This document shows positions 1,267-39,200 of a DNA stretch of 64,000 bases, piece by piece. Source of the DNA: Aplysia californica (lineage: Eukaryota); assembly GCF_000002075.1 (NCBI RefSeq), contig NW_004797416.1:624027-688026 (forward strand), in the 5' to 3' direction. How positions within the stretch are numbered: the first letter of the stretch is position 1; every line of letters begins with the position of its first letter. The position numbers were made by a program, and so were the translations under genes. The notes under the pieces are model-generated. The model was not told where the DNA came from. It saw only the letters and a list, made by a program, of their open reading frames with translations, and did no database searches.

Positions 1267-1310
<44 letters not shown>

Positions 1311-1345
1311 ATAGTTAGTTAGTTAGTTAGATAGTTAGTTAGTTA
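1199..1345. repeat. (TTAG)n microsatellite
   Basis: Direct observation. Confidence 0.95.
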
Positions 1346-2238: not shown

Positions 2239-2279
<41 letters not shown>

Positions 2280-4899: not shown

Positions 4900-4945
<46 letters not shown>

Positions 4946-7471
4946 GAGAGAGAGAGGGGGGAGAGAGGAGAGAGAGAGAGAGAGGCGTGGTGGGGGCAAA
5001 ACTCAAAATGCAGGGCTGTCCCTCACCATTGAAGATTTGCCTGAGACCATCCTCTGTGCGGGCACCGTATGTGAACAACCGGACAGCATTGCCTGAAGGA
5101 TGAATAGCGTTGTTGGGACGGTCATTTTTCCTGCAAAAGAAAATCAAAACATTTCACTTTATGTCAATGAGGAGTTTTCTTCTTTTTTCTTCACTTGCTT
5201 TAAAGCCCAGAAATCTGCTTACATGAGCCCACATGTTTGGGTTAGTGGGTGTGTCACTTACCTATGCACGTTGTTAGTGTTTTGGAGTGGAGGGGNNNNN
5301 NNNNNNNNNNNNNNNNNNNNNNNNNNNNNNNNNNNNNNNNNNNNNNNNNNNNNNNNNNNNNNNNNNNNNNNNNNNNNNNNNNNNNNNNNNNNNNNNNNNN
5401 NNNNNNNNNNNNNNNNNNNNNNNNNNNNCATTTAGTTGAGCACATTGTGAGAGTTGTGTTGGGTTTTGTCACTTAATTGAGCACATTGTGAGAGTTGGGA
5501 GGAAGGGGTCACTTATTTGAGCACACAAAGAGAAGGTCACCTTCAGAAGCACATAGTGGGAGTTGGGGTAGTTGGGTGTGTCATTGGATTGAGCGCACAG
5601 CGTGAGTTGAAAAAAAAGGGGTGGGGGGAGGGGGGTAGATCACATGCTTGAGCATACATTTTCAGTTGAAGTCGGTAAGATACTTACTTGAGAATAACGT
5701 GTGAGTTGGTCCCTCCAATGCCAAAGCCACTGATGCCACACACACGTCCAGTCCAGGGGGTCATTTCAGTGACCACTTTGAGGCGACCATCCAGCAGACC
5801 GGGAATTTCTCGGTTTGGTCTCTCAAAGTTCAAATTGGGAGGAATAACGCCTTCTTCCATGCCAAATACACATTTAACCAGTGCATTGAATCCTGAAAAA
5901 TCAAGAGAAAAGCCCTTAAAGTACTGACATGTCTCAAAAGGATAGCATCATCATCCAATAAAGATCACAAGACGTTTGAAAAATTACGGCGACTGAGACA
6001 AAAATACAACACTTGAATAAGCATGTTAGCTCTACATTCTACCAGCTTTTACAGTATTTACAAAGTGCACTGCCTTTCTCATTCGTTTTTCATACAACAT
6101 ACATGTTTGTCTTCTTTACAATCCTTTCACTTTTGTGAAAGTGTTGTATTAATGGAGTGTGGGTGGGTAATTTTTTTTACATTAATTTATGAATAGACAA
6201 AGTTCCCCTACTAGACAGGAAATAGTCAAATCATAGAGTAATTAATTTTCGTAATACTATGAAACAATTATCCCAGGAGAAATTGGTCGTTCTAAAATTG
6301 CCGGCTGTTATAAATTCGTGTAAGGTCCATGACTGCCACACTGCTACTAAAACAGCGATCTTCTTTTTCTCTATAAGAAATGAACCTGCTAAAAGGGGCG
6401 ACGTGTATATTTTAAAAAAACAATGAAATTAGTAAGATCATAGCGTGTAATCCATCTTTTTCGTCCTCGATTTCTAATAGTATCATTGCCCCATCCTCCC
6501 AGTCCGTATGTACGTACCAGCTGCTGCCTCGGCATGTCCCACGTTTGTTTTGATAGATCCCACCAAAAGTGGTGATTTCCTGCGTTTTCCACAGAACACA
6601 TTGGTGACCGCGTTGGCCTCAACAGTATCTCCGGCAGATGTGCCTGTTCCGTGGCATTCCACGTACTCCACCTGTGTAGACATTGCAGGGTAAGGACCAC
6701 ATTTCTGCACTGATGAATTATGGCAATAGCAACACTGACAACACAAAGACGAATCTGTCAGTATCAGGTTGACTGCTAACTGCTGGTAGGCATAAAGTGT
6801 AGATGACCCGTTACATGGGCAAGCCAGGGGATAAAACACATGCACATTTTAATGAGAGTGACTTTCCATACTGCAGAGAAGGTAAAAAAATGCAAAGTAA
6901 ACGTAGGATTCTACACATATCACCAAGCCAGTGAGAGTGATATACTGCATATGTCAACAAGTGATGGTATTGTTCTACATATCTCAACATGTGAAGGTGA
7001 CATTCTTCATATTTCACCAAGTGAGAGTGGTATTTTTCATATTTCACTAAGTGGAGGTGACATTCTACAAACTTCACCAAGTGAGAGTGACATTCTGCAT
7101 ACTTCACTAAATGATGGAGGTATTTGACATACTTCACGAAATGAGGGTGGCATTCTAGATACTCCTTTAGTTTTTTAAACGAATAGGTGAGGACAAAGGA
7201 GTGCAGCCACAGCATCCAATAAAAACATGAGATCAATTACAGACAGTAAAACAGTTTTAGATGCTTCACTGCGCGTCTAGTACAAGCCAAAATTTTTCTC
7301 AAACAGAGACTCGTAAAATCCACTTGAAAGAAATTAAGAAGATTGTCATGATTATTTATGACTGTCTCCCTCGAAGCTTCTTCTGTGCAGGTCCATCATT
7401 CAGCATTGGCACATGTCGCCATAACACCAACATCAACAGAACATGACTTCATGCCCGTTTGTTTTGGTGAG

Positions 7472-7532
<61 letters not shown>

Positions 7533-10500
7533 ACGTGTCTGAAACAATGTAAACCGTTTACTTGACTTCAAGAACAGATCACCGTGTCACTCACCACTTG
7601 GGGGTCAATCCCGCATTGCCTGTAGCACTCGTTGATGGTGTGCATCTGACCAATGACTGAGGGATGGTTGAAATCTGGAGGAAATATAAGATGGGCATAG
7701 TAACAGTTAAACACAAAAGGCTTTAAGCCGTTTTTCCACGGCGTGAATAATCAATATGTATAAACATTATGTGTCAAATACAAGCACATTTTCACTGAAT
7801 GGATTTAATCGCTTTTTTAAAAAAAAGGTATTTCAGTGAATGATAAAGACCTGCCGCGAACGCATAACGCAATTTTTTTTTAAAACTGGTCTAGAACTAC
7901 GCGCGAAGTACTCTGCGATCGATGCTTACTGTCTGCCCATATTCGACCTTGGCATCAGAAGATCCACAGGATCTGTCAGTCATCCTGAATCAATTCACAA
8001 TAGCCAATAAGAAGTCACGAATGGTTCGCAATGAACTGAGCTAACCAGTAGTCTGCAAATCAAGATCTGGAACAACTACAATTACTTACACTGTACAAGA
8101 GCCAATCAGATACCATGCAGACTACGCATTGCAGCTTATCAATATCAAACACATTACACACTGCAGCAAATCAGATGTTAAGAACACTACAAACTGCAGC
8201 CGTTTAGAACGGTGGTGATGGCAGAGCAATGTCTGTACTGATCGTCCCGTCTGTTTTGTAGTTGTGCTTCAATATAATTAACGAAAGCAGAAGAATTAGT
8301 TTGAGTACGCATATCGGCTCACCAAAGTCGCCGCTGTTTCCGTCACATGATTGGAAGCAGTGAGCAAGTTTGCAGTAGACTCTCCTCGCATCTTCCTCTT
8401 TTTGCAGCAGGACCGCACCCACCGCCTCACCACGACCAAATCCCTGAGCTGTGGAGAGACGGACAAACACCAATGCAAAAGACTAAAGGGCACTTTATGA
8501 TCAGCTGAACCAAACATTGGATGAGAGGTAAGAACAAGGTTGAGATGGATTCATTATTTTAGTCAACACTCATGTGAAAGAAAGAGAAAGAGAAAATGAG
8601 AGAGAGGGNNNNNNNNNNNNNNNNNNNNNNNNNNNNNNNNNNNNNNNNNNNNNNNNNNNNNNNNNNNNNNNNNNNNNNNNNNNNNNNNNNNNNNNNNNNN
8701 NNNNNNNNNNNNNNNNNNNNNNNNNNNNNNNNNNNNNNNNNNNNNNNNNNNNNNNNNNNNNNNNNNNCGTTGACTACAATTGTCAATTTTTCTTCTTCAT
8801 TCTCCTTCTAGATTTCACTGGAAGTCAGTTATCTGTGGGTCAAAAACAAACGGCAGCAACAAGGAAAGGACAACCCCCCCCCCCCCCAAGAAAGTAAAGG
8901 ATACCTACAAAAACTAGAGCAAGATTAATGATATGATACAATCGAACCTGCTCTAACAACCACCTGTCCAAGACAATCACCTGTTCAAATGACACCTTCC
9001 CACTTTTCCCTTGCGTTTCTATGTGATGATGACACCATTCAAGAGGACAATCTTTCTAAGATGACTACTTTTTTTCTCGACAATGGAAGGTCGTCTTACA
9101 CAGATTTGACTGTAATTACGACTAAAGCTGAATGTAGAGACCACTGACCTCTCTCATCGAAGGTGTAACACTTCGCGTCAGGACCAGCAGCGCCAAGCTC
9201 TATAAAGAGCAATGATGACATGGGGTTGCAGTGAAGCTGGCAACAGGCCACGATAGCGCTGTCGGCAACGCCCATGCGTATGTCCTTCATGGCCGTTTCC
9301 AGTGCAGCCAAGTACCCTGAACATGCTGTGTCTACACACACGCTAGGACCTGAGAAAAAACCGGTTTTTGACAGTTAGAAAATACAAGACTGGATCTCCA
9401 CCCCACCTTTGATCACAGCCCGTTAACTCTTTGGCAACGGGCATGTTGCTTGCTTGAAGACGCTCTGTTTTGGGTTTATTTTAAAATAGAAGCAAAACTT
9501 GATTAGTCATATTCAATTCCGTTTTCTTTATTTCAAAGTAAAAAAAGCAGGCTACATCTGCATACTATGAAATATGCAAACTTGTTGTTTTGATTAATGT
9601 ATGATGGTTTGAAATGTGCTGCAACATTGCTTTCGTCTGCAGATCGGAGATAATGCGTCCGCAGCGTCCCCCAAGAGCTACAACATATAGTCTGTCAGTT
9701 CGCTTTGATCAAGTTAATCAGATTCTATTAAAAGAATATTTTAAACATCTGTTAATACAGCATGCTCCAAAGTATATCAATTCATTTCTCCTATATCACG
9801 TTATTTTTTATACTTCTCCTGTTAACGCATGTATGTTATGCATTCTATTAATTTGAAGTAGTCCTCCCAATAGTTCTTTTAGTAACTTCCAAACAGCATG
9901 TCATAACAATTCACTTTCTCTAGCTCCGAAATAACAAAGCTTCTGAACCCACGGGAGAACGAACGGCTATAGAAATGTAACTTATTTTTATATAGTAGCA
10001 GTGAATACCTCTACTAAGCCTAGATTAATGAAAAAAAGCACTCTGATGATGAGACATAGATCTACCTCGAAGATCCATGGCGTAAGATATTCTGGAAGCT
10101 CTGAAGTTGTTGACCACGCCCATGCCCTTTTTAGCCTCACCGATGACCTCCAGTCCTTTGCTGAGCCAGTAACAGTTGGCGTCATAGGCCACACAGGGGA
10201 CATACACGCCCGTGTTGGTGCCTCGTATTTCCTGCATTGAGTAACCTGTAGGGGTGGAGGGGTGGGGAGCACAATCGGACAAATGAGCAGATGACTGATG
10301 CGCATCAAACAATCTCTATCTTTCTCTCTATCTCTCTCTTTATGGAAAGGTGGAACATGTTTGTTTGTAGCGTATCCCTGATGCAGGGTGAGAAAAGACA
10401 GTGATGATGATAAACAATAGGAGAATGGGTGGGGGGCAGCTCTAGTAGTCCTTTACTGTTATCTGACCTATAGACATAAACCAAGATTTAGAGAGTCCTT

Positions 10501-13332
10501 ACCAGCATCCACCACAGCCTCGTAGGCACCCTCCAATGATAAACGGATGTTGGGATCAAGGAACTCGGCATTCTTAGGGGCAATGCCAAAGTAGTCGTTG
10601 TCAAAATATTCTGCATCATCTATGTACGCGTGCTGCTTTTGTGTGCCATACTTTTCTGAGGAAGGAAATCAGAATATATGTAAAGGGCTAAAGGGAAAAA
10701 CCGAGGGATATCACTTTCTGGCATTTTTAAGAAAAACAAAAATGAAATGCGTCTACTCCAGTGGTATTGAGCTACTCGTCAGGTTTTAGCCGTAGACACT
10801 TAGATGAGCCTAAAGAGGTGCGTAAACATTTTCCAAATCACGTCACAACTCAAATTATTTTGTTCCCTTCGAGTACATGTACTGGTTCTTTGATCTATTA
10901 AGAAGCTAAACTCTTTACCCTGATGGCCAGTGTGTCGGCCCTGCCAGCGTCAGTCTGTAAGTTCAATGCCAGTGGAGTGACTAGTCTAACAGTTGAACCT
11001 ATTCTGAAGACAACGTATATAAAATAATCCTATGTTCGAACGGCCATTTCCCACTTCCCTCTTTTTGGGGGGGAAAAGTAAATAATAATAATAATAATAG
11101 ATAGCATTTGTATAGCGCATATCCCCGCTCAGCAGCAGGCTCTATGCGCTTTACACTATATTATTACCCCAGCAGACCATAGAACACTCCGAAACATTCT
11201 CAGCTTCCCGAGAAGCATACAGTGCAAGCAGCCGATTAAGCGCTCAAACACTAACAAACTGACAAGATCTTTCGCTGTCTATAGCCGGGTACCCATTCCC
11301 ACCTGGGTGAAGTGAGGAAAATTCGTGTAAAGTGCCTTTCCCAAGGACACAACGTTGGGCCCTTGACGGGATTCGAACCCACGACCTTACGGTTGCGAGT
11401 CCGAGAGCCTAACCACTAGGCCACCGACGCCACCGTAGACAAGAACCATCTTACAGACTAAAAGTACGAGGATTATAAAGTCTCGAATACGTTGAACTCG
11501 CATCCTTCCATAGCACGTGTTCCTACAACAGCAGAAAACAAGCTTCAAAGATCGTGGTCTCCGTAACAGGCCAAACATTATATCCACATCTTTTGTTGTC
11601 ATTTCGCTACCCCAGAGTTTCTGGCCGTTTTGATTCACTAAGACCATGAGATCAGAAACCAAAATATGCTCTATCTGCCCTATGAAAATCGTGGGATTAT
11701 TATGAGTCGTCATCAAGACATTCAAATAATTGTATTTGAAAAAACTTGATAAGCTGTGAGACTCAAAGTTTGTTATGTCAAATTTCTCAAATCGAGGTAC
11801 TGAGCAGATGGAACTTTGAAAATCTAAGGTAGCGATTTGCTGTCTTTCATGTTCAATCTCAACGACACACTCCTTTTTGGACAATGGTTCTTTGTTACAT
11901 ACTTTACTGAGGATCAACTTCGCAACTCACCGATGTCAAATCTCATGGGTTTTGTTGTGAAGACCTCCTGTTTGTTCCAGAGCGCGTGTTTCACGTCAGT
12001 CAGGGTCCTTGCTTGACCAACTCGGCCAGCCATGCCCGTAACGCAGATGTCACCTAGAGAACAAAATCAGACACAGTAAATAAAAACTGTAGACTTGTGA
12101 GTCGATTTCCACACAATAAGTCAAACGCATCGAATACGTGTAGTCTTTAAAGATTTTTAAATTCCATCTTCTTCTTTCTCCACCTGCTTGTAATCATTTA
12201 TCCGGCATCCTTTCGTCTGCCCCCACCCCCTTTCCCCGTTTGCTTTCTCCATCACTTCCTTACTAATCTCCTTCTCAAACCTCCTTCCCCTTTCCTTTCC
12301 AGTCTTTTTCCTTCCACCCTTCCTTTTTTTCTCCCCCATCCCTCCCGCACAAATGCATAGTTGTTCGCCTTCTAGCGTTTAAGGTTTACCCTTCCACCCT
12401 CGAGTCCCCCCACTCTCTCTCTCTCTCTTNNNNNNNNNNNNNNNNNNNNNNNNNNNNNNNNNNNNNNNNNNNNNNNNNNNNNNNNNNNNNNNNNNNNNNN
12501 NNNNNNNNNNNNNNNNNNNNNNNNNNNNNNNNNNNNNNNNNNNNNNNNNNNNNNNNNNNNNNNNNNNNNNNNNNNNNNNNNNNNNNNNNNNNNNNNNNNN
12601 NNNNNNNNNNNNNNNNNNNNNNNNNNNNNNNNNNNNNNNNNNNNNNNNNNNNNNNNNNNNNNNNNNNNNNNNNNNNNNNNNNNNNNNNNNNNNNNNNNNN
12701 NNNNNNNNNNNNNNNNNNNNNNNNNNNNNNNNNNNNNNNNNNNNNNNNNNNNNNNNNNNNNNNNNNNNNNNNNNNNNNNNNNNNNNNNNNNNNNNNNNNN
12801 NNNNNNNNNNNNNNNNNNNNNNNNNNNNNNNNNNNNNNNNNNNNNNNNNNNNNNNNNNNNNNNNNNNNNNNNNNNNNNNNNNNNNNNNNNNNNNNNNNNN
12901 NNNNNNNNNNNNNNNNNNNNNNNNNNNNNNNNNNNNNNNNNNNNNNNNNNNNNNNNNNNNNNNNNNNNNNNNNNNNNNNNNNNNNNNNNNNNNNNNNNNN
13001 NNNNNNNNNNNNNNNNNNNNACGAAGACACACTCAGGCTATCATTGTCTGTCTGAACGTTTGCTTTGTTCTTTGGTATTTAGAATTCCTTAGACACTCTC
13101 CCTATTTACAAGCTTTAACTCTTAGTCTCTTGGTCTATTTAAACGTTCGCCTAGGTATTTAGCATATCTTAGATACTCTCATCTCACCCACCCCCTTCCC
13201 TCCGGAAAATATCCCCAGCCTTTTTTAATGTTCACCTTGATATTTAGCATATTTGAGACACTCGGGCAGGTCCGAATTGGTGCCATTGATGGTCGGCGAC
13301 GTGTTGCTGTTTGAGTCAGCGTAGGCTGGCAT
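3028..13332 (-). CDS. Gene B: paralogous FAS-like polyketide synthase, 12 coding exons (KS + start of AT), 3'-partial
   Basis: ATG at 13332 with in-frame upstream TGA; 12 phase-consistent GT-AG exons, 1674 nt. Motifs DTACSG, HGTGT, KTNVGH, GMGCQW. Eight exons have the same length as their gene A counterparts. Confidence 0.92.
4069..4199 (-). CDS. Gene B exon 11, linker (YRGFTLLN)
   Basis: 131 nt as in gene A. Confidence 0.92.
5027..5130 (-). CDS. Gene B exon 10, KS-AT linker ([13 protein letters not shown])
   Basis: 104 nt as in gene A. Confidence 0.92.
5250..5710. repeat. Degenerate tandem copies of the gene B exon 9 donor region
   Basis: Repeated tcacttaNttgagcaca...gagttgg. Confidence 0.75.
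5688..5892 (-). CDS. Gene B exon 9, KS end ([15 protein letters not shown])
   Basis: 205 nt as in gene A. Confidence 0.94.
6518..6671 (-). CDS. Gene B exon 8, KS His residues (VECHGTGT...KTNVGHAE)
   Basis: Catalytic motifs; 154 nt as in gene A. Confidence 0.95.
6905..7170. repeat. ~30 bp minisatellite (~8-9 units) resembling the start of gene B exon 8
   Basis: Unit gtgagagtgacattctgcatacttcaccaa. Confidence 0.8.
7595..7674 (-). CDS. Gene B exon 7, KS ([10 protein letters not shown]...GIDPQV)
   Basis: 80 nt as in gene A. Confidence 0.92.
8323..8448 (-). CDS. Gene B exon 6, KS ([11 protein letters not shown])
   Basis: 126 nt as in gene A. Confidence 0.93.
9149..9349 (-). CDS. Gene B exon 5, KS catalytic Cys ([12 protein letters not shown])
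   Basis: Active-site motif; 201 nt as in gene A. Confidence 0.95.
10066..10245 (-). CDS. Gene B exon 4, KS (RGTNTGVYV...[11 protein letters not shown])
   Basis: KS motif; GT-AG. Confidence 0.92.
10503..10655 (-). CDS. Gene B exon 3, KS ([22 protein letters not shown]...DAG)
   Basis: FD..FGI...DP..R motif; GT-AG. Confidence 0.92.
11080..11434 (-). mobile_element. tRNA-derived SINE, family 1, full length
   Basis: A box TGGCCTAGTGG, B box GGTTCGAATCCC, core CCCAGGTGGGAATGGGTACC, (TTA)n tail; near-identical copy at 40553-40915. Confidence 0.9.
11931..12053 (-). CDS. Gene B exon 2, KS start ([13 protein letters not shown]...)
   Basis: tag|GT...G|gtgagt; KS N-terminal motif. Confidence 0.9.
13236..13332 (-). 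CDS. Gene B exon 1 (N-terminal extension [11 protein letters not shown]...KYAKYQ)
   Basis: Polypyrimidine/cag acceptor near 13362, ATG, donor G|gtgaac whose phase fits exon 2. Confidence 0.7.
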
Positions 13333-22336: not shown

Positions 22337-23085
22337 TTTGTGTGCGTGTGTATGTGTGNNNNNNNNNNNNNNNNNNNNNNNNNNNNNNNNNNNNNNNNNN
22401 NNNNNNNNNNNNNNNNNNNNNNNNNNNNNNNNNNNNNNNNNNNNNNNNNNNNNNNNNNNNNNNNNNNNNNNNNNNNNNNNNNNNNNNNNNNNNNNNNNNN
22501 NNNNNNNNNNNNNNNNNNNNNNNNNNNNNNNNNNNNNGAGGGGGGTCATTTAGACACGGTCTGGAGAAAGGCACCCCAGAGGGACCAAATCACACTTTTA
22601 TGTGATTTGACCTATGAAAGTGGACACCAGATGCTCTACGACTCCCACGTAGTGAGGTGACAAGCTGGAACGTATGGATCAAGTGGTCGGGCCTCTTAGT
22701 CGCCTTCCTATGAACTCAGTTACAGAATCTGGCGTTTACATGTTTCCACCTAGCTGAACGTCGTTCATAGCAAAAGCCATTCCATAATCTCTAGACCAAA
22801 CCCTCATCCCTCATTTTCTTTTATAAAGTTGTTGAATTCTGGCTAGTCAAAAATCTGTGAATGGTGAGAGAGAAACACACAGCATTGAATATTGAAATTT
22901 CGGGGGTCAAGCCAACAATGAGAAATATGTGAAACGTGACGTTGTTGTTCTGCCTGTCCAAGGTGTGTGAGTAAGATTATAGAACCAAGAACTCCACTGA
23001 GTACATGTATTGTCTTGATAACTATTGCGTGGAAGAAACATCATAAAACAAATACAATAACAGAAACAAAGAATTCCATTAATTC

Positions 23086-23091
23086 TTTATT
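23086..23091 (-). terminator. Candidate polyadenylation signal of gene A
   Basis: AATAAA on the minus strand followed by a U/GU-rich tract (ttctttgtttctgttattgtatttgttttt). Another AATAAA lies at 24115-24120. Confidence 0.45.
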
Positions 23092-24304
23092 TTCACGCAA
23101 AATATTACGGATCATTGAACAATACTGCTTTCTCTACTTTTCTGGTGGGAAGTCTACTGGAGTCAAAATATTTTATAATTATGTAAGAAAAAAAAGAATA
23201 TTCTATATTTAGCACTTGAGGTGAAGTTATACGAAAGGAACTCTACTGCAAGCAATTCAGTAATATATAAAGTATGCCTTACAAGAATTTTAAGAATAAA
23301 ATACTGTTGTCTTGAGCTGAAACCATGCCTAGTTTATTTTTTAACGTACTCGACAGAAGAAGAAAAAGAGAAACGGCCGGAAGCTTTCACTTATTATGTG
23401 ACAGTGTGACGTAGAGACAGAAATCCCCCAACAGAACCTCTCAACTCTGTACAAAGGACATACAGGACAGTAATCTTGTGGTTGAACCGATGTTCATTAT
23501 AATGTCACTTCTGTGCCCACTTCTATTCATTCCCAATCACTGCCAGCAAGTCTTTTGAAAGAAAATTAAGCGTATGTCTTTTCTTACATGATCTTCTGAA
23601 CCAATTCTCTGATCTACCCTTCCTCATTCACTTTTCCGCTGAGTTATATAACCTCCAAATCCACCCAGGCCTGTTGAGTTAACAGGTTTATTTCTCGTGG
23701 TAAAGTTTCCCACCCAAAAAAACCCAAAACAACAACAACAGCAACAAAAACCCCGATAAACAAAACAACTTTCCCCACACTTCTGGCGTCCAAATTCATC
23801 AGTATCATTTTTCTATTTGTATGAATAAACACGACCTTGTAGCGCGTGTCACAGCTCACAGACAACATTCCGTGAACATCCGATAAGCTCACATGACAGG
23901 TTATACAACCGTTAAGAGAAAGCGACTACAGCAACAACAAAAATGAAATAGTAAAAGAGCAGTTTAAAGCTTTCCCAAGGACTGTCACTTTAGTCTCTCT
24001 TTCCCATTTGTGGATAAATACAAATCGAAACCCTCCTGAAAGAAAAGTTTTGGAGAAGAACAATGCTGAAGTTAAAGCCACTGAGAGTTGAGAGTAAAGT
24101 AATGATATTAAATCTTTATTGTAGTAATGCTGTTCATCTTTTATTATACAGACACATGAGTATCTGAATCTACTAAAGTTATAGAATTAATCATGAAAAT
24201 GTTTCTACGAATTCTGATTAGACGGCGCGGGGTATCGACGCATGAGAGGTGATGACATCACAAAAGCCTTGTTAACTCGGTCGGCATCGTGTCCTGCCGC
24301 AATT

Positions 24305-24327
24305 TCATTCCTCTGCATTGGCTGTCT
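24305..24327 (-). CDS. Gene A terminal coding exon (ETANAEE*)
   Basis: ttacttccaacag|AG acceptor fits phase 1; TGA at 24307-24305. If this intron is retained, a stop follows at 24952-24950. Confidence 0.6.
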
Positions 24328-27300
24328 CTGTTGGAAGTAAAGCAAATTGAATATCACAGTAAACTATTACATAGTAAACTCACGGGCGCACTGGTATTAT
24401 AAGTCTCAGTAAAACAATTAACCTAGCCTGAGGAGATTCTATATATGAATGTACATAATGTACCCCCCCCCCCCACTCTCCAATACATAGCAATATACAG
24501 AGGCAGAAATAGGTAGTTATATAGTGCACAGTAAGAATGGACAACAGACTGCTCTTTAGCACTATATTCAATTTTACTTCAACTGGGCTGAGAGCTATAT
24601 TCCTTAGAACTTTCTCTCTCCTAGTCCCTTATCACTCCATTATCAATTACCAAAAAAGTAGCCAGAAGCATTACTACAATATATAATGTGTGTGTGTACA
24701 TATACATATACTATATTATATACATATACTATACATGTATACATAATGTTTATATACAAATTATGTACCTTGTCTGAACGGCCACCTCAGGAAGAAAAAA
24801 ATGGTTGTCTTAGAAAGGTGTGGACACCTTACACGGTGCCATTTTAGAGTAAAATAATCGCAAAGGGAAAATGGAACGGTGCTGTTTGTACAGGTGATTG
24901 CATTATACAGGTGGCCCTTATAGCAGATTCTACTGTATATACACAATCCTCAGCAAGGGGCTCTCCTCTCACCGATTTCCTTGAGCCTGGCCACGGTCAT
25001 CTTGCGCACCTCCACCAGGGTGACTTGCACGTCAAAGTCCTTCTCCAGGAGTTGCTTCATCTCCACGCCCATTAGAGAGTCCAGACCCAGGGTGCCCAGA
25101 GTGACGTCATCAGCAAGATTATCCATGGTGTTCATACCTGGGAGGAAAAAAGACTTGGCATGAGAGAGATACCAGTGACACGTTGTGTACAGGGCTTTCC
25201 ACCAAGATTATGTCCATTGAGCTTAATTTCTTTATCTTTTTCTTTTTTTGTGGGGGGGGGGGGGATAACACAAGAAGGGAAAAAAGAACCGTGATAAACC
25301 AGAAACTAAATGCATTTGTCCATTTCTTTACGACTGTGTTTGTTACTTGACATGTTTTTGTTTTTTTAAATCTGGGACTGGTTCTCTGCCATTTGTACAC
25401 TTCCAAGTGGAATGAATAAAGCAGTGTGTCCATCTATGATGCATGTATGTACGTGTGAACACACATTATTAAGTCTATGCATAAAAGGGTGCTATATTTT
25501 ATGTGAGAACTGAATGTGGCAAAAACATAATGAGAGTTGAAATTATTATAGTATTATCTATGAGGTGCAGGAAAGCTTCAGTGTTAGTTTAAGCGTACTT
25601 TTGAGAGTGTCACTCACCAAAGACCTTGCAGGTGGCAGCCATGAGAGACTTTTTGGCTCCTCCTGCTCCAGCACTTCTTCCCTCCTGATTTTTCTGTAGA
25701 GACACGGGCTGGTGGGAGGCGACCACGTCTTGATTCTTCAGAAGCAGGAAAGTGTCCATGCAGTGCAGACATGAGTCAATCTTTTGAATGCCCAGGCCCA
25801 TGGCTAAAGGGAAAACGGTGAAAGTCGATATCACATAAAAAGAAGATATATTTCTTTGTCGTGAATAAAGACAATCTGGACACAGAAAAGGATGTCTTGG
25901 TGAAGCAGTGGCTTCTGAAACAAGACATCAGGCCAAAATAATGGTTGCATGTGTAAACCAAAGTGACAGTCGCAAATGTTCAGATCAAACCTACGCCAGA
26001 AGGATGCTCAAGGAGTTCCAGGATTTACTATTTTAAAAAATATAGTAAAAAAATTAAAATGGAAATTATACCTCTTTCCTAAAAAATATCCAAGACAGAA
26101 TAATGTTTATGGTATAGTTAAAGATGGGCTGGAAATACAGCTATAAGCAATACTTAAATACTATTTAGAGATCTACGTTGCATCTTAAGATGTTGAACGG
26201 TCTATATGACATAAGTACCTATGAAAAGCTGGACCTTTGTAAAGGGTTTAACACAGAAAAATATTGCGACTCCATTTCAAAACATTAAATTCTGGACGTG
26301 TCTAGGGTGATTTAGAAATTATGATATTGTTTTTGAAGTGCAGGGAAATTCATCCCGTTGATCTGAGATACAAAGGTACTGAAACTTGTTCATAGTTTAC
26401 TTAATTTCAAGCACACCATACACATTACTCGGTATCACTGCTGAAATCACCGCAGTACGATATACACAATGGCTTGAGAAAGATTAACGACAGTTGGTGA
26501 TTGAGGGTGCGGTGGCGGCGCGGTTGGGGCGCTCGTCTCCGAAGCGGAAAGTCCGGGTTCGAGTCTCGGTTCGGACACGGATATTTTTCGTCCCCTCCTG
26601 CCCACCCAGCAGTAATGGGTACCTGACTTCAGTTCGGGAAGTAAAGGCGGGGTGGAAAGGAACTGGCCATCCTACCACAATATGTCGAAGGCTCGAACCC
26701 GGACTTTCCGCTTCGGAGAGGTTATATGCAACTTAATTGTATTCCTTGCAAGGACGTTCACTCGTGGACTACTCCGATGATCATTGCTATGGAAAGCCTG
26801 TTACTTGTGGATGGCAAGTATGGCTGCAGACATTCATTTTGAAGGCATCATTGATCTTTAAGAAATGACCTTAAAAATCAGAGGTTTTAGAACATCGAGA
26901 GTTAGGTAGTTATAACTAAACAGGTTATAAAAGCTACCCTGACATTGGAGAAACAGTTAAAACATTTTTACAGTCAACTAGGCTTCACGTGCCTCAATGA
27001 ACCTATTTTTCAGGAGATGCAGCTGTTATGGTATTTTATGTTGCCTTGTAATCGTGTAGCATCAAGCTGGAACCGTAAAGCTTGGTCAGTGCTTTTGTTA
27101 TCAAATAGAGCGAAAGCACTAACGCCCTGCGGAGTAGGAACAAACTTTTATAACTAATTCTACCTTCAAAAGTGGCCACCATGGCCTGTCCCTCTCGTTC
27201 AAAGCCAGTCTTGACCATGAAGGCTCCCACGTCACCCACGGCACCCCACTGGATGGCCATACCTACAAGAGAGAGAGAGAGAAGGTGCAAAATCCAGGGC

Positions 27301-30300
27301 AGAAAACGAGTAACGGACAAAGACTATAGAAGAAGCATTTGGACTATAGTAATTACTGTATCAACAGATACCATTGGCAGGAGAGAGGTAGCATACAGAT
27401 TCCAAAGCCAGGACAGAGGATAATCAAGCTACATTTACTTTTGTTGCTATTAAACCATTTGGCACATACTTCTATGTACTATGCTAGAGCGCAATAAAAA
27501 TGAACATAATAAAACAGAGAAATATAAATGCAGGAAATATTTGTCACGACGTGGTGGAACCAGGCACTCGTCATGTTTAGACATGTAGAGTTATTAGTAT
27601 TATTTCAAAGCTTATTAATTTGTCTTACTTTCAATGGAAAAAATAGTCAACTATCTTGAAAAAGTCGAAATATTTGCTATTGAAGGAGGTGAGGGTCACC
27701 TAGTTTCAGAAGTAAAATCAGCGAGCGAATGGCCGCCAAAGTTTGGCGACTTCCAAAGCTTGAGAGTCCTAAGAAACTGCAAAGTTACATTTTTTGTCTT
27801 AAATCAACCTTTTTCTGCAAGTTCCAAACATAAATTGTGTTTTTAAATGAACCTTATAGGTGTCAAGTCCACAAACAAACAAAATTGATCAAAAATATCA
27901 AATAGAGAGAAAAATGCCAGTTTCTTCAATTTCATTATTTTGACGAACACCGGATTTCACCATGATGCCTCAAATATTAGTATTGGGTCTTTGTGGTATA
28001 TTTTCTCCGGCAGACAAACAACCAGAAATGTCAAAACCCAGGAAGGAAGGGAAACAATGTTAAAAACAGTAACTTGACCAACAGACCCACCTGGCAGCCC
28101 GTCAGCTTTCCTCTTCTCACACGTTCTCTCCATCACGGAGTTTCCAAACCCGTAGTTTGTCTGTGCGGCGTTACCCCAGCCTGAGGCCATGCTGGAAAAG
28201 GGCACAAACCACCGAAGTTCTGACCCACACAGCTCACGAGACGCCTGGTCCATGAAGATTGTATCGTTGATTTTACTGTTGGCCGCTTCAGAGAATGTTT
28301 CACGATTCAGTTGGGAAAGGAAACGGTCATGCAGAACCTGAACACAGAGGAAGAAATAAGTGTATACTACAACGATGTACATGAGCAGATGCCTTCAAAT
28401 CCAGGAACATTAGTGTGAGTCCAGAAATACAAGAGTTTTAGACCTAAAATACATTCTGTGACTTTCGAAAAACATGGTTATTGGTGTTAACAAGTGGGTG
28501 CAAATATGAAACTGAGAACGAGAAGGGTTATTTCTTACACACTATAACATTGCAATCCTTTAGCCTTCCTTATTTAAAAGCATCTTTACTGAAAAAGGTT
28601 TGTTGAAAGCTGAAGTTGTTCTGAAACGACAGCAATATAATGTCATACAGGGTACAGACTCCTCGCATTTCAGAATGTCCGAGCCTATTGTTACTTTCAC
28701 GACTACGATTGAAATGAATACTGACACACTATAAACGTACCAGAGAGAGTACAAAAATGCCTCCTACAGGTCCCATCTGCTGAGCTTGCTGTATAAGTGC
28801 ACGTGCATCAGCGGTGGACTTGAGCGTGGTGGTCACCACAGAGATGTTAGCTTTGTAGTTCTCTCGGAGGATCTTGATCTTGTGCTCCTGGTAGCCATTG
28901 CTCACACCACGCCTAGAGCCATACAGCAGAAGGGACAGGGTGTAAACACGGGAAGGTAAGTCGAGTTGGAGAGGGCTAACAAAGTCGATAGAAAGAAGAA
29001 GATCGTATAATGCTGAAAAAATGGTGAAATGGTATAAGTTTAACGCCTCTATCAACATTTGTAGTTTTTAAGAGGGGAGACTTTCGAGTTTAACGTCCAA
29101 CTCCGAAAGGACCGAGCTAAATAGGAAATTTGGGTAAAGCACTTTTCTAAAGGACACAAAGTTGGACCTAGCTGAGGCTCGAACCCCCCCCCCCCCCCCT
29201 CGAACCAGCAAAATCATGATTTCGGGTCCTTAGCCAAACCTCTAGGCTAATAACGACACCACTTAATATTAGAACAAAGTGTTATTCTCCTCAATTCCAC
29301 CCCCCCCCCCCTACTTTTCAGCGTTAGCACGTAAGACTTAGTGCTTCAATGACTACATTTCTACACCAGTAGCCACGTCTATTAAGATCGCTGTCGCTGA
29401 GAAACTCAGGCATTATTTCATCTCCTCTTCTATTCCGAACTAAATACTGGAGGGTAAGGCTTCTACCTGATTGTAACCAATCGATGAGGTCAGGAACTTT
29501 GACCTGAGTGGAAGTCTTATAACGCACTTTTAAAAACAAAAGCAAGTTCTCTAAAACACACCTGGAGGTGAGCACGATGTTCCTGGCACCCCTCTGCACC
29601 AGCCAGTGTGTTAGTTCCAGTCCAAACCCTCCAAGGCCACCACACAAGATGTACACTTTCCTGGGGTCACAGGTCGCACGCGGGTTAACAGGAAGACTCA
29701 AGGGGTGAGAGAGGAAACGGTTGTAGGACTCCTCCTCGCGAACCTAACACGGGTAAAATGGGACTAAATTGAATCTCAATCGATAAAAAAGCCCCAAAAG
29801 AGAGCACAACAACAAATAAGTGATTGGACAGATGGCTGAGTGTACATCCGGTACCAGTTGGCCAGATCCAACTCAGGAGAGCTGCTTTAAAAGCTCAAAA
29901 TGTTGTAAAAGAGAAACCTTAAACAGTCAAAATCTCATTGGAAAGAGATACTTAAAACACTGAAATTCTCATTGAAGAAAGGTACTTAAAACCTCAAAAC
30001 TTCTGGAGAGAGCCATTTAAAACACTCATAACCTCAAAAGAAAGCTTCCTAAAACACTCAAAAGCTCATGATTAATGAGCCATGTTTTCCCATAAGTAGA
30101 GAACTTTCAAATTCCTTTTCCTGCCCATTGAATTTGAGACCCTCATACTCAAATAGACATATGCACAGGTAATTTCAGGTGTTGCTGATACAGGTACTCG
30201 TTGCAAAAGGAGCCTCCCACAGACGGTAACATGTTATGCTTTTGTCCGGCTTGAAAGTGAAAGTCTTCCGAGGCAATGTGAACAAAACATACAGATGAGC

Positions 30301-33172
30301 GATGGGGACAGCTTTTTCTTGTGTTGTATTTCCCCGAATCTGAGTTTCAGTATCTTTTCATTCATGCATATTATTTCATCTTCCAAGAAAAAGATTTTCG
30401 CATTCTGACATTTTCCATAAATATATCTCACAACGTAATTTTGTCTAATACAAAACGTAACTTACCTGTTATCTAGAAAAAAAATGTAATATACATGAGC
30501 ATTCACTCTTGGTGTGTGGATATGTGCATGTGTTTCAAAGTTACATGAGGTACCTCAATGACGACTTTTCCAAGCACCCTGTTCTCTGAAGCGGCTTGGA
30601 AGGCCTGGCTGATCTGCGCGGCCTCGTAAACGGTGGCACCGATGGGCTTGATAACTCCTCCTTCCAAGTCCTTGCCAACACACTGGATGAGCTTGGCATG
30701 GCTGGCCTTGTCGTTGAGGATGACCACTGTGTCTACACGTGTGTACGTCATGTTCTTCTGCATCAGTTTGGCCGCTGCAGACCACACAGGGATAACAGTT
30801 TGGGACATGAGGGACAATACAGTTTGCAAAATAGAACACCAGGACATTTGATCAGCGTGTCACAGCGATAGCTAAGATATACAACAGTTGATGACAGCAA
30901 GGATACCGTTTATGTGTATACGAGTCTGCAAGAGTTCGGAGGATGCCTTCATACATACATTATATCAATGTGCTACAGGAAGGGAACATTAAAATAAAAC
31001 AATTTGTGAAATCAAGGACGACTATATACGGTGCATGTCGCTTTACGTCCTTCCCAGCTGTCCACAAGAGTCACAATAAAACACTATTGCAAAAAGTACT
31101 GATGCAGGAGGTTCTAGTTTTCTGCACAAACTTGCTTTGTGAGAGATGTTTTATGGAAAATGTCAGAATGCGGGAATCTATTTCCTGAAGGACAAAATTA
31201 TACGATTGACTGAAAAGACACTGAACGAGGTGACTCACCGAAAGCTTCCACAACCTTGCTGGTGTTGGTGCGTCCCATCTCCACGTACTGACCGGAGCTG
31301 CCCAACGAGAAGACACTTTCCTCAAACAGTTCGTCATTGGCGAAAGGACTCAGAACCACGTCCACACCTGCAGCCAGCAATATACACGGCNNNNNNNNNN
31401 NNNNNNNNNNNNNNNNNNNNNNNNNNNNNNNNNNNNNNNNNNNNNNNNNNNNNNNNNNNNNNNNNNNNNNNNNNNNNNNNNNNNNNNNNNNNNNNNNNNN
31501 NNNNNNNNNNNNNNNNNNNNNTGGGGTGAAAATTTGAGACAAAGGAGAAACTAATCCTGACCAATAATACAGTAATGAGGACTAACCTAGGTCACATTTC
31601 ATTATGACACCAGTGAGTGTAGCTTTGTTTCTGTTAACACTCTACACAAACCTTTCTGTGTCCTTAGGAGTGGCCGGTTTCATTATATTTTTGCTCTTAT
31701 AAACACAAGGATATTTTCAAAGTGACTTTTAGCTGTCAGTGGTGACAGAAACTGAAGATTCAGTACAAATACACCTTAAATACACTAGTCACAGCGATCA
31801 CAGCATGTCTATACCAAGTGTTCAGTATGAAAAGCTTTTGCAAACTCTCTAGTCAAACTGACATCATGACAAATGATTTTGACCTCTGTTGCAGTTCCTT
31901 TTTCACCCATCCCATGATCTTCAGTCTAATCGTATACCCTCAGCTACGCTCGTCACTTTAATATCACGGCAGGCATATCCGTACCTTCACCACTGGTCAA
32001 TTTCTCAATGCCGTCAGTAATGCTAAGTTCTTGTCTCCGGAATATGATGTGAGACTCTGCTAGTTTGGGGAAATATTTCCTCACATACTTCCTCTCCTCT
32101 TCTGACTCGACTGTGGTGAAGACAATGGCGCCGACACTGAGAGCTGTTCGGATGGCAGCCTGGGGGGAGGGGGGATGCATATGAGTAAAATATAGCCACA
32201 GCAGCCGGATCTTTCTTTTTTTAGGGGGGGGGGGGGGTGACAGAGAATGATGTATCTCTCCACAAACATACTTCACATCTATTTTTTTTAAGTCTCACTG
32301 TGATAAAGTAAAAAATAAACTATAATGCCTGTACAGAAACAACTGAACAATGTTTCCGGTGGATACGACGAACACGAAAGCTGAACATTATCACCTATAG
32401 ACATGACCCCCCCCCCCCCACTACACACACACAAACATACACACACAAACATACACACGCGCGCAAACACACATGGGCACATTACCAAACTTATACACAT
32501 TTTTACATCCTTTCACATAAACAGCTGCACACAGCCAAATNNNNNNNNNNNNNNNNNNNNNNNNNNNNNNNNNNNNNNNNNNNNNNNNNNNNNNNNNNNN
32601 NNNNNNNNNNNNNNNNNNNNNNNNNNNNNNNNNNNNNNNNNNNNNNNNNNNNNNNNNNNNNNNNNNNNNNNACCTACTGTCCAAGACTCTATGACCTCGA
32701 AAAAAAATAACTTCTGCAAATTGGCCAGGATCTACACCAAATTTGAGAGGACCTTCGTTTGACTCCATAATCTATGCTCAAATTTGAACTGGTCAGATGA
32801 GCCTGTTTCATCAGCAATGTCTTGGAGTAACCGAGAAAAGGCCTTTTGCGTTAGAAAATACGCTGAATTTAAATTTGATAAAAAGCTTCAAGCCAGTTAT
32901 TGGGGGAAATAGGAGTTGATTCGAGATCAAGACCTGGTGCACCTTTGAAAAATCAGTTCAGGGCGTTACAATCAGTTCAAGGTGCGCGAATTTCTGTCAA
33001 AAAGCCTTGATTACGGGAGGGAGTAAGCATAAACAAACCATGGGACACCCTGAACACGCACAAAGCATTTGAACAGTGTCATTTGCAGACATTGCGTTTC
33101 CAGCCCTTTTGCCACCCACCCGCTCCCCCCTCCCAAAAAACGAGCGCACACACACACACAAATACACAAACG

Positions 33173-33258
<86 letters not shown>

Positions 33259-36200
33259 AACGCGCTCGCGCACATACACACAGAGCAGGACTTACTGTGC
33301 CCATGGCCGTGGCGCCCGAATGTATAAGAATCGTTTGTCCCTCTCTCAACGGATTCTTCACCACAAGAGCGTAGTAGACCGAGAAGTAGGCGTACGGTAC
33401 AGAGGCTGCGTCCTTCATGGTCCAACTGTCAGGAAGGTCCACAGCGAGACCTCGTGAGTAGTTGACACCAGTGGACAAAGCCTGAAGGATTGGGACATGG
33501 GAGGTTTTAATACGAGTTTTGCTACACTTGCAACACAAATAGGTCATATAAGTGTCGACATGAGAGGTGAAACAGTGTCTTATGGACGAAGGTTCGTAAC
33601 AATGCTCAATCAATCCCTATGAAATAAAAGATATTGTAAGGCTTCACCACAAACAGTGTATAATTATGTGGATAAATGTGTAATATGAATGATAAACACA
33701 GATGCCAAGATGACAAATCATGGTTACTAAAATATTAAGTAACAGTAAACCTATAAAGAAAATGTTAATTCAGCATTTGGTGGTTTATAAACATTATCTA
33801 CAGTAACGCATTTTATAAGGAAGTATACACGTAAATGAGTGCCAAATACGTCGGAATGAAGCATCATGCTGCATGAGCCAACGGAGCGCAAACACTAAAA
33901 GCCCAAAGGCTATACTGTGACAGTATCGCTTCCACTCATCGGCTTACCAAACCAGGGACAAGACCAATAACTCTAGTTCCGTTGACACGTCTGCCCACAA
34001 ACTCGTAGCCGAAGAGACCATGATTGAAACGCCACTGAAGGTCTGCTGTCTTGGGAATTTTTCCTGGCATGAAACAGATCACGGTGGAATCAGTCAATTT
34101 GAAAACCATACTTTTTTTTATCAGAAAATGCCATCGACTTTTTTGTGCACATTTAAAGTTTATGAATTTACGAACACATCGCTTTACAGTTTTGAACATA
34201 GAATAAGGCAATGTGCGATTTCAAAGGACCATGAAAGTGAATCTAAAACTCAGCAAAAATGACGACAAGTGACAAAGTAATTTTACTCTATATAGATATT
34301 CATACACTATTTCAGTAATCTCTGTGCCAGAAATGTTGAGCTCTGGCCTGAAACTTATGAACGCTGAAGACATTATATAACTTTACAAGGTAAAATTGAA
34401 GTAATTTCCAACGCTGAATGATAGTAATAAGGCTCAAACATACAAACATGAATCAAATAAGATCAAAGAAATTTGCCCCCTCTAGTAAAACTACAAGTGA
34501 CGAACAGCTACTAGGTAAGAACTCTAGCACTTATGCAAAGACCCACTCTGTGCACCAGATCTAGAGAAAATCAATACAAATAGACTGCAAATATCTCACA
34601 TTCGTGCGTGAGAATAATTTAATTTTTCAGACCACAAAATCTGAACAATACTTGGAAGGTATAAAATAGAAAGAGGTAACTGGTATCAAATATACAATTT
34701 TGAAGAAGGATTTTTGAGTCATATAACCAAAAAATAACATTTCATTGTTTATACAAAAGACATTTTGATGAGTTATCGAAAAGATTAGGGATTTATTCTT
34801 TTAATTTGTCCATGGATGACTCTTTAGAAAATGAGATTTATACAATTTCAAAAGCAGAAAATATTACAAGACCGCATGCATGAAACATTTGCCACGCAAA
34901 AACATAACTTTTGTTTTAATGTCATCTTACTTTAGCTTCTGACTTTTGCCAGCAACTATATACAGGTGTGCGTAGACCTACCATGAGCACACAGTATATC
35001 TCTGTCATTGAGAGCGCTGTAGTAGACCGAGCAGAATTTGTCGTTGTCTCTCTCCATGAAATCATCAGTGGCTAGCATCTCCTTTCCACTGCTGGTCCAC
35101 CGGGCACTGCTTGGATCTCCAATCACAGGCACAGTCACATAGGCATCCGCGGCCCGGGCAGAGTTCTTGAAAGATGCTGAAAAGTGGAGAAGATAAAAAA
35201 TTAAGCGCATGTTCCCAAGTTCCTTACCTAGAGGTCTGTCTCTATCTGTGTTATTTGACATAGTTGTCTGTAACATTAAGTCGCACCCTTCTTGGGGCTC
35301 TTTACAGCCATTTAGCTTTGTTCCTCCCACTTCATTACAAGCTGTCTTTCATCATGAGCGAGATGTAATGATACTAAACAGATAATCAATGTAATGTCTT
35401 ATTGTGGGCATGTGCACGACCACAAGTATTAATGTATGTGTGTGTTTGTTTATTTGTTTGTTTGTTTATGCCTATTACGTGGACGTGAGACTCACTGTCC
35501 AGGGGTTTGCGGGCAAAGAATCCCCAACGCCCATCCCTGAAGACATTTTGGTACAGGTCCAGACCGACCACCGTCTTCTGGAGTCGCTCGATGGACAAAT
35601 CAGCTTTGTCAGTGGTCTCTTCCAAGTTACTGCAGAGAGCAAACCTCACTTTGTCACCTCCAGGCTCTTTGCGCAGACACTGATTGCGGGGAGAGTAAAG
35701 TTCAAAGGTCAGTCGACGGGGAGATATGGAAAGAGTGGGAAGAGAAACAGAAGTGTATTGCTCAGTAATGTGGGTAGAAACAGCAAGGAGTGAAAGGAAA
35801 CAATATTACTATACTAAGGTTGTTAAAGGCCATTGCCCGATTGCCTGATGCAGACAAACGTTGCCGATATGCTTGTAGAATATATTATACTGAAGTTGCC
35901 TAGCTTAACAGATTATATTTAGGAGACATTTAGATCCATTTTATCTAGAAGCCTGATAATCTTATCCAAATGGGGTTATCTAAATTACAAAGACCGGTTG
36001 AGTCATGTAAGATGAAAGCAAAACGAAATGTCTGGCAAGAAACACAGAGAAAAATCCTGCTTTAAGTAAAATATTGCAACTGGGTTGATTCATTTCACAG
36101 AACCTCAGCAACTGAAATGCGTGTATGAAATACCAAATGGCCGTGGGGTAGGCAGTTGCATACCTGTGGTTTACTTGAAAGAAGAAGGCAAGGACTACAG

Positions 36201-39200
36201 CTGAGGAAGCATGTGGCTTTATTTTGACCTTTGCATGAAGACTTAATTTCAGAGCATAGCCTAGGAAACTCAGAAATGTGTACAGTCGAAACTGTCCAAG
36301 ATGGCAATCCATTATCGAGATGAAAACTGGATGTCTTAGACAGATGGACGTCGTAGAAAGTGTCGTCGTTATATAGAGGAGACACGAGGGGGGGGGGTTG
36401 GAAGTAGCCGTTTGTACAAGAGGTGGTCTTGGACAGGTGGCGGTTAGAGCAGGTTTGACAGTACTTCTCTTTCAGGGCATGGATTACATCACATCTGCAG
36501 TCCAATTTAGTATAGTAGGGATCTTCATGTGACTACAAAGCAGGTTTGGCTTTTCATTAGTAAGTCTAGACATCAGCCGTAGACTTAGAGTGTAAAGATT
36601 TTTTATTCGATTGTAGTCCGCGTATTTTATTTTTTTTTTTGGGGGGGGGGTTCTAGAGGATTCAGTGGTATATTACAAACAATGTTAATTGTTCTAATAG
36701 TGTGTACACCACTGTGTCTCGTGTGATAAGGCCATACACCCTCACCTGTACAAATCCAAAGATACCGCTATTGGCCGTCTCCGATACCAGCCAGAGTCTT
36801 TTGCCACTGTCGGAGGGTTCTGCCTCAAGACGAGCCATCTCTCTTTGTATGTCCTCCAGCCAGGAGCACTCAAGGCCCTCCATGTGGATAAAGGTCGGGT
36901 TGATGGGGATCTTTGGCTTCTTCCTCAGCAAATACATTGTGGACAGCAGGCCGTCCGACTTGCGGTACACGAGGTCAAGGTCACGTTTGGCAAAGTACGA
37001 CTGCCAGGTGCTGTGGTAGAAACAGGATGAACAGAACGCTTTAGACTTTCTTACAATTCTATCAGCTGTTGTCTTTCAATAAGTGGGTGTGTTAATAAAA
37101 TCCTTGAATTTAAAGTTCCACCCAGCAGTTCACATTTTGTTAACCTCACAAGGAACTGGGGGGGGGGGGGGGTGTTATTAAGAAAGAAACCTTTCGTCTC
37201 ATAAGAAAAACCAAACACGTAAATAAACATGCACAGATCTGAGTTATGCTCACCTGTCGGTCATGAAGCGCCCGTACTCTCGAGTGCCGTTGGTGGTGGG
37301 CAGAGTAACGTTCTGGTGTAGACCCTCCAGGGCTACAAAGAGCGGGAAGTTGTGCGTTACTTCTTGCACCAGAATGAACCCACCGGGTACAACATTGTTG
37401 ACCAGATCTGTCAAAGCACTCACCACGTTGGCCTGAAACAGTTAGGAGTCAGGGGTGCATGGTGCTTAGAAAATGCGGTCCAATATTGGGGCAGTTACAA
37501 AAATAGTGCGCTTAAAGGTTGACTGCGGCTGGGGAGGTATAGCCCCTAGCTTACAAGGATGTACATGCATTGTTCAACTGCCAAACCTTGTCTTACTTTG
37601 TAAAAGTTAAGTATCATTATTCTAAAACCTTTCCAAGTCAACAAAGACTTTTTCTAATATATTTATGGACACAACAGAGTTTAGTGTCTACAGCTGATAT
37701 GAACTACACTGAGAATTAACTATGTTGCTTCCATACCATTGTATCAATGTTTCACACTCCAAGCAAGACAAGTTAGAAATTTTATAGTGCTGACAAGGGA
37801 GCAAAATAATTTTATTTTAGCCTGCATCATGTTCAGAGCTTACTGACCTAAACACAATAAGATCACTGATGCTCAGCGGTGAAAAAGACAAATTACTGAA
37901 CATGCACCTCAAGACTTTCCACAAAGGTAACTTACTTGTTTATGCAGTACATTTTTTAGCACCAGCAGATTGGCCTCTACACTGGGGCTGGATCCACCAC
38001 TAGCTGGATCCCACGTGACTGCCTTCATGCCAGGACCTTTGAAATCCTTGGGCAGATCGTCTTTGTCTGTGGCTGTGTAGTTGATGCCACTGCGCACCTG
38101 CAGACGTGGCACAATGTGTCTGTGGGGACATATATATATATATGGCGTCACAATGCGTCCCAAGAATTTCTTTTAATTGAACATAAGAAAAGGTCTACGT
38201 TTATATTTCTATTACTTGATAAGGAACATTGTGCTGTCAATGAGAATTATTGGAAAGATATCGTATGGAAGCACTGAAAGACATGCTCACTAGCTTAAAT
38301 CTTAAAACTAGATTTTTCTGACACATCAAGCTTAAATCAGCTTCTTTCAAGCACACTATTAAATTGTCAGAACTGTTTGAGAGGTCAAACGAGAAAAACA
38401 TTTTTAAAAGTGGTGGATTGGACACAGGTAAAGAATCCGTTAGAAATAGAAACAGAAACGCTCTGAAATGAAACCCCCTTCAATTTGTTATCTCTGGTGG
38501 AGTGTGCACCTGTACATCCTACTGCTGGCTGCGTCCACTTCTAACACGGTGTGTTTGCCGTCAGGAAAGTTGTACTTGACTATTTCCAACGCAGCGTTTA
38601 AGATCTCTGTAGAGCTGAGACTGTCAAGAAGTCGATCTTGACTCAGTTCCGCCCTGCTGGACGCCATAATACCACTCACAGCTGTTATAGAGACGGGAAA
38701 AACAAGTTCAAGAGTGAGGTAAAACAAAAGAGTCTACGTTAAGTTACAATTGAAAGTTATGTCTTTTGATTTACACAGCAAAATTTCAAGAGCATTAGCA
38801 GCATGCATCTTGGTAAACTGCCTCCCACCGGCCTCAAATAGACTACGGTCTCCACCCAAGAAGTTAAAATACCAGTACTTTACTTGTACAACTTTACAAA
38901 TAATAAGTAAACTGAAGAAAGAGAACTTGACAGTATTCCAAACATGAAAACCCGTTCGAGTGTAAGCCTGGACACAGTTGGGGTTTTTTTCCCAAGAAAA
39001 AGAATATATTTGATCCTATAGTTCTTAAACTTCAGTAAAAACTATGGAGCTACTGTTGTATTCCCTGTCCACCATTTCACATAATTAGCCAGAACAAACA
39101 CGCCGAACATAGCAGACAATAAAAAGGTATACCCCTGGGATCTGTGCTTGTGCCGGCCGGAGGGAAAATTTTCTTCAGAGTTTTTGCCAACCCAGAGTTG

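Follow-up and report, generated by a model that had tools for sequence, protein, structure and literature searches.

In the window (the whole stretch of 64,000 nucleotides from Aplysia californica analysed here), the minus-strand gene A encodes an animal FAS-like polyketide synthase (AFPK), probably a member of mo-clade 3, and its protein very probably ends directly after the acyl carrier protein (ACP), with no release domain in cis. The missing thioesterase (TE) is in itself no discovery. The surprise implied in a preliminary description is not supported: AFPK mo-clades 1-3 are already described in print as having no TE (Lin et al. 2024, section 8; PMC10764717), and pyrones made without a TE have been described for EcPKS1/2 (PMC7280274, PMC10515154, PMC11831141). 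What is added here is a corrected model of gene A, a genomic stop for clade 3, and a TE loss that likely took place behind an intron retained from fatty acid synthase (FAS).

Structure and C-terminus of gene A

Gene A has 44 exons, all with GT-AG introns, and encodes 2,281 amino acids when modelled together with sequence flanking the window; exon boundaries are predicted, three donors having been set by hand. The frame contains no internal stop and no N, and the catalytic motifs of KS, AT, DH, KR and ACP are intact. The features are as follows, all on the minus strand:

window-equivalent 69156-64859 (loci L012), minus: KS exons 1-4, beyond the window end (model)
58151..62679, minus: KS exons 5-9, Cys/His/His present (alignment, model)
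47977..57540, minus: KS-AT linker, AT (GHSLG, Arg, AFHS) and post-AT exons (alignment, model)
35496..47514, minus: DH (His motif and FLD Asp present), pseudo-MT and pseudo-KR exons (alignment, model)
30554..35176, minus: ER exons with HSGATAMG, Arg for the FAS Lys and Val for the FAS Asp; predicted inactive (motifs)
27164..29743, minus: KR exons with Rossmann motif, Lys, Ser, Tyr, Asn; predicted active (motifs)
25618..25803, minus: exon 42, with the end of the KR region, the KR-ACP linker and the first ACP helix (model)
24973..25137, minus: ACP exon (exon 43 of 44), DSL serine motif, phase-1 donor (model)
24328..24972, minus: last intron, 645 nt, GT-AG, phase 1 (model)
24305..24327, minus: 23-nt coding portion of the inferred last exon, completing ETANAEE and TGA (acceptor, paralogue B)
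23080..24304, minus: putative 3' UTR, with five further collinear blocks common to gene B (alignment with B; weak low-depth contigs)
23086..23091, minus: AATAAA conserved with gene B, the likely main poly(A) signal (alignment with B)
1..13332, minus: 5' part of gene B, tandem paralogue of A (81% identity)

The domain order, KS-AT-DH-pseudoMT-degenerate ER-KR-ACP, was obtained by aligning the model to FAS, with Pfam run on three related public proteins (P0001-P0003). Identity to mammalian and limpet FAS is 34-37%. The roles of the catalytic residues compared are those of FAS enzymology: gene A retains the KS Cys-His-His, the AT GHSLG/Arg/AFHS, the DH His, the KR Lys-Ser-Tyr-Asn and the ACP DSL. 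The KR, with its Rossmann motif and all four of these residues aligned, is predicted to be active. In the ER, the NADPH loop HSGSGGVG of FAS has become HSGATAMG, the Lys of EIGKFD is replaced by Arg and the Asp of GILLD is aligned with Val; since all three motifs are altered, this domain is predicted to be inactive, as reported for EcPKS1/2, and similar changes are found at the same positions in P0002 and P0003. The AT motif GHSLG is uninformative on the extender unit, being present also in EcPKS2, described as a methylmalonate user.

The ACP exon (25137-24973) reads ...LGLDSLMGVE...LKEI and then G|GTGAGA, exactly the exon end given in the preliminary description. As a correction to that description, the ACP domain begins one exon upstream, where 25803-25618 carries the linker and first helix. 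Each of genes A and B has a single ACP, not a tandem, and a whole-genome ACP search gave four matches, one each in A, B, the canonical FAS and a second gene on contig C76.

Among 680 AG sites checked down to 13300, the first strong acceptor (a pyrimidine tract of at least 11/15 followed by YAG) lies at 24327 and yields ETANAEE and a stop. This is the acceptor that had been proposed earlier, although its description as phase-compatible adds nothing, phase being no constraint on a terminal exon. Reading through the ACP donor does lead to a stop after 7 codons, within the 8 claimed, but this was discarded as evidence for the C-terminus because 17 of 43 gene A donors (counted before three donors were corrected) reach a stop within 8 codons in the same way.

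Better evidence comes from gene B, which starts at 13332, is 81% identical to A over 2,036 aligned residues (least so in AT, 70%, and DH, 73%), and has its ACP and a matching stop exon about 31-32 kb below the window start (L003). Stop exon and acceptor are 83% identical between the paralogues over 54 nt (E 2.7e-11). The 23-nt exon itself shares 20 of its nucleotides, with one amino-acid change, one silent change and an identical TGA, and lies 674 nt behind the ACP donor in B against 645 nt in A. As acceptor and exon are conserved while the rest of the intron cannot be aligned with that of B, the stop exon of gene A appears to be real.

Conservation continues beyond the stop in five blocks (24006-23956, 23882-23861, 23629-23504, 23487-23455 and 23133-23080), a collinear series that terminates at the common AATAAAGAATTA (AATAAA); a seventh match between A and B, of 12 nt and E 0.55, was non-collinear and was dropped. 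The poly(A) signals noted previously were recovered: five AATAAA fall between 24304 and 23000, a density of 3.8 per kb where the introns of gene A have 0.6, and the last of the five, at 23091, is the one conserved in B.

Four sequencing runs were compared with 22600-24685, three of them possible-RNA assemblies and one a raw-read run, none being on record as RNA. The assemblies gave seven short contigs of depth 3-8, all within 22758-24033; none of them covers the stop exon, and one falls past the conserved AATAAA. No reads of the raw-read run matched 22600-24685, and neither joints nor loose ends are listed in the runs on this stretch.

Public protein models of the gene A locus are fragments titled 'fatty acid synthase'. 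P0001, which derives from gene A exons and is titled 'fatty acid synthase [Aplysia californica]', runs through the donor at 25618 and then stops, so losing the ACP serine. P0002 and P0003, from other collections, both end 5-7 residues after the ACP. P0003 (59% identical to gene A, on an intron-less contig of 4,549 nt) ends LREIEADNSDE, with a tail as long as that of gene A; P0002 (63% identical, on a short intron-less contig) ends LREIDEKFAGQ, five residues past the ACP match. Both ends are probably stops and not contig edges, as the contigs leave about 190-230 spare bases.

We infer that the splice from 24973 to 24327 is used, and hold this with high confidence. The proposal that the protein stops right behind the ACP without a TE is supported by conservation in the paralogue, by two homologues with a short tail and by the controlled negative searches described below.

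Search for release domains downstream of the ACP

The search for TE and reductase domains behind the ACP that had been recommended was carried out with 190 post-ACP tails of at least 200 aa each, mostly TE and one reductase-sulfotransferase. None of the 190 matched 13400-24970 at E<1e-3, nor did any match the 27.5 kb behind gene B at that threshold, while 148 of 190 matched the FAS locus as a positive control; five shuffles likewise gave no match downstream of A and B. The earlier statement that GxSxG hydrolase exons are absent was upheld (0 of 547 minus-strand stop-to-stop segments in 13420-24972). In the interval between A and B, none of 58 minus-strand ORFs of at least 42 aa passed the Pfam cut-off; four weak Pfam rows among them (E 0.007-0.04), all under the cut-off, were put down to chance.

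A TE profile recovered six exons of the canonical Aplysia californica FAS on C76, spread over about 4.7 kb; within the 164 kb surrounding the window no match fell below E 4. Genome-wide (927 Mb), an exon-wise search with PF00975, which gives a lower bound, produced one match among five candidates, namely FAS, and a TE exon query, again a lower bound, matched only at FAS.

Of the three N gaps noted beforehand, all are real (20343-20690, 20978-21110 and 22359-22537), but the count misses a fourth of 100 N at 15410. These runs of 348, 133, 179 and 100 N between the stop and gene B are all situated downstream of the stop exon and also of the poly(A) signal conserved with B. A TE hidden within them was rejected, their total being smaller than a TE coding sequence and the transcript signals preceding them.

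The last intron of gene A interrupts the same codon in the same phase as the ACP-to-linker intron of the canonical FAS of this genome. It therefore seems likely that the TE was lost when the exon following the ACP acquired a stop, the ancestral FAS intron being kept, which would suggest how the domain vanished from a FAS-like ancestor.

Clade placement and release of the chain

Mo-clade 3 is confined to Euopisthobranchia, Aplysia included, and the Aplysia row of the published survey scores clades 2, 3 and 6 (PMC10764717). Gene A, from a host within this group, has the FAS-like domain order, no C-terminal TE and a KR predicted to be active, and its motifs agree by eye with those of a mo-clade 3 exemplar in the N-terminus, KS, AT, ER, KR and ACP. 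Tandem ACPs occur in some members of the clade only and are no requirement for membership (PMC10764717). Of the other groups, mo-clade 1 shares the ER predicted by motif to be inactive, but is restricted to shell-less sacoglossans, whereas the present host is a sea hare; the features of mo-clade 2 do not fit a protein with the KS Cys present and KR motifs intact; and canonical animal FAS has the C-terminal TE and intact ER that gene A lacks. In a tree, used solely to show separation from FAS, A, B, P0002 and P0003 form a single long-branch group that includes no FAS row (SH-aLRT 100); the tree comes from a quick search only, carries a long-branch warning and represents B and the C76 genes by rough tblastn mosaics. 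Short motifs of A and B have no exact copy in Supplementary Data 4 and 11 of PMC10764717, where line breaks or gaps may mask them.

Both routes of release suggested in the preliminary description, spontaneous pyrone formation and a hydrolase or acyltransferase acting in trans, would appear to be the right candidates to test. The reading we prefer, for which we regard the case as evenly balanced, is that gene A is a TE-less AFPK, ending seven residues past the ACP, that releases a polyene as a pyrone through self-cyclisation. Repeated rounds of elongation that include the KR and DH steps and omit the ER step would give a conjugated polyene; skipping of the KR in the last rounds would leave a terminal poly-keto acyl chain on the ACP; and this chain would lactonise off the ACP as an alpha-pyrone, as in EcPKS1/2. 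Every one of these chemical steps is carried over from clade-1 enzymes.

In EcPKS1/2 the ER is dead and the ACP is C-terminal; the purified enzymes yield pyrones, though their release step is called not understood (PMC7280274, PMC10515154, PMC11831141). Offloading in them possibly proceeds by spontaneous pyrone formation, the route for most AFPKs being given as unknown (PMC10764717). The occurrence of auripyrones in Dolabella, a sea hare, favours the pyrone reading (PMC7767343). Weighing against it, euopisthobranchs also make non-pyrones de novo, lignarenones (aryl methyl ketones) and haminols (alkylpyridines) among them (PMC7767343), and the sources cited name no polyketide product for Aplysia californica. 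Pyrone release is described for mo-clade 1 only, PMC11524194 adding clade-1 enzymes only, and in a literature search whose coverage excluded most subscription journals no biochemical work on a clade-3 enzyme came up. P0002 fits EcPKS1 (300 bits) no better than mammalian FAS (342 bits), so the analogy spans a deep split.

A possible but somewhat unlikely course is that the chain is hydrolysed off, by a hydrolase in trans or by water, and that the resulting beta-keto acid loses CO2 to give a polyene ketone, perhaps one like those that euopisthobranchs secrete in alarm and defence. Ketone ends are a feature of navenones, aglajnes and pteroenone. Euopisthobranchia, the sole home of mo-clade 3, contain lignarenones, haminols, aglajnes and pteroenone made de novo, which speaks for hydrolysis, as does the missing chain-length factor remarked on by the EcPKS1 authors. 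None of these four kinds of compound is reported from Aplysia californica in the sources cited, however, and the exon-wise genome search (a lower bound) gave no stand-alone PF00975 thioesterase, nor was there a TE-like exon in the 164 kb around the locus, other hydrolase families having been searched in the interval between A and B.

It is improbable that the chain is moved from the ACP to an acceptor (an alcohol, amine, glycerolipid or CoA) or between A and B, the agent being a separate acyltransferase or gene A's own AT or KS. Fungal synthases without a TE, those of LovB type among them, work with partner proteins, a role for the KS in release has been suggested for the EcPKS enzymes, and A and B stand in tandem and differ most in AT and DH, all of which would suit such a transfer; against it, the ORFs scanned between A and B include no candidate for a partner. 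Least probable is that the missing TE is an artefact of assembly or modelling, with exons under N or unassembled, or that gene A is a decaying FAS duplicate: the four N runs and the splice unseen in possible-RNA contigs or raw reads on 22600-24685 would allow the former, but the FAS TE region holds more coding sequence than the four runs combined, every run lies past the conserved stop and poly(A) signal, and paralogue B and two homologues end alike, while the uninterrupted frame with its intact motifs argues against decay.

Tentatively, then, mo-clade 3 as a whole might use a release not yet described (hydrolysis with decarboxylation, or transfer by a partner) in place of EcPKS1/2-like pyrone formation, although we consider this rather doubtful. 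If it did, mo-clade 3 enzymes would make the polyene ketones and related compounds that serve sea hares, bubble snails and sea butterflies in alarm and defence, and the complete single-ACP paralogues A and B, coming from a laboratory animal, would make the release question directly testable. In any case, a complete single-ACP model with a defined C-terminus is a clean reagent for studying release by TE-less synthases outside Elysia, and serves the question of what Aplysia makes with such enzymes.

Comparison with known systems

The closest counterparts of gene A are the mo-clade 3 exemplars c00826 and c00040 (Supplementary Data 11, PMC10764717), two of a larger number of sequences used in that study. 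Sea hares are hosts of this clade, which like gene A has no TE, and its KR is active, as predicted for gene A; an exemplar's first exon starts MPAYA as in gene A and its motifs are near-identical along the protein. The exemplars differ in carrying a Pro-rich linker and tandem ACPs, where A and B have one ACP and a short linker, and in being stop-less, ending at the contig edge inside the tandem-ACP region, where A and B have a genomic stop.

EcPKS1 and EcPKS2 of Elysia chlorotica (mo-clade 1; PDB 9cq1, 9ctk) share with gene A the domain order, the inactive MT and ER, the C-terminal ACP and the lack of a TE, and are adjacent genomic paralogues as are A and B. They belong to another clade, found in sacoglossans only, use methylmalonyl-CoA and have proven pyrone products. 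Judged by record ends only, EcPKS3 and EcPKS6 appear to stop within the ACP exon, unlike gene A with its separate stop exon, whereas a Siphonaria record of clade 2 appears, on the same kind of evidence, to end in a similar post-ACP micro-exon. Mo-clade 2 shares the absence of a TE, but in its exemplar the KS cysteine is missing and the KR is inactive, both of which are intact in gene A. Canonical FAS, finally, has the domain order of gene A up to the ACP and the same phase-1 intron after it, and differs in its intact ER (GGVG, Lys, Asp) and in about 300 further residues that include the TE (GYSFG).

Uneven identity between the tandem copies

Gene A, the minus-strand FAS-like polyketide synthase, and its tandem paralogue gene B are 92-96% identical in several modifying-region exons and mostly 73-87% identical in the KS, AT and ACP exons, an unevenness that may have its source in patchy gene conversion between the two copies. 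The following gene A stretches were compared with gene B:
Window 45324-45134, minus strand
Window 38138-37933, minus strand
Window 37465-37229, minus strand
Window 30780-30543, minus strand

Probable repeats and other elements in and between the two genes

Window 40915-40563, 353-nt intronic element in gene A
Window 11433-11081, 353-nt intronic element in gene B
Window 20760-20910, two adjoining copies of a ~78-nt unit in the A-B interval, between two N runs
Window 26490-26730, intronic G+C-rich element, recognised by eye

The two copies of the 353-nt element share 96.6% identity in non-equivalent host introns, with weaker copies at window 65637-65417 and elsewhere, and the element is probably a mobile repeat. 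The ~78-nt unit probably belongs to a repeat family, sequence similar to it also flanking the N run at window 55051-55247. By eye, the G+C-rich element looks tRNA-like, in the manner of a SINE, and an inverted repeat lies within it.

Protein models and other synthase loci

Public protein models of both paralogues (P0001 for A, P0124 for B) are fragments; P0001 starts in intron-derived sequence and ends before the ACP serine.
Window 25618-36471, P0001, named fatty acid synthase

Further ketosynthase loci in the A. californica genome (G000) are candidates for canonical PKS, clade-2 AFPK and mitochondrial synthase:
C228:475452-478986
C847:177014
C75:1023360
C90:126236-126979

A second FAS-like gene lies tail to tail with the canonical FAS:
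G000:C76 about 134500-86960, minus strand

A TE search from its ACP to the FAS end gave no matches, and because this stretch holds N runs of 100, 237, 2,798 and 100, the absence of a TE behind this ACP is unsure. The post-ACP donor is kept unchanged in this gene. The second gene and the canonical FAS are sisters in a quick tree, into which both were entered as rough tblastn mosaics and which carries a long-branch warning, and they share 69% identity over 1,848 aligned residues.
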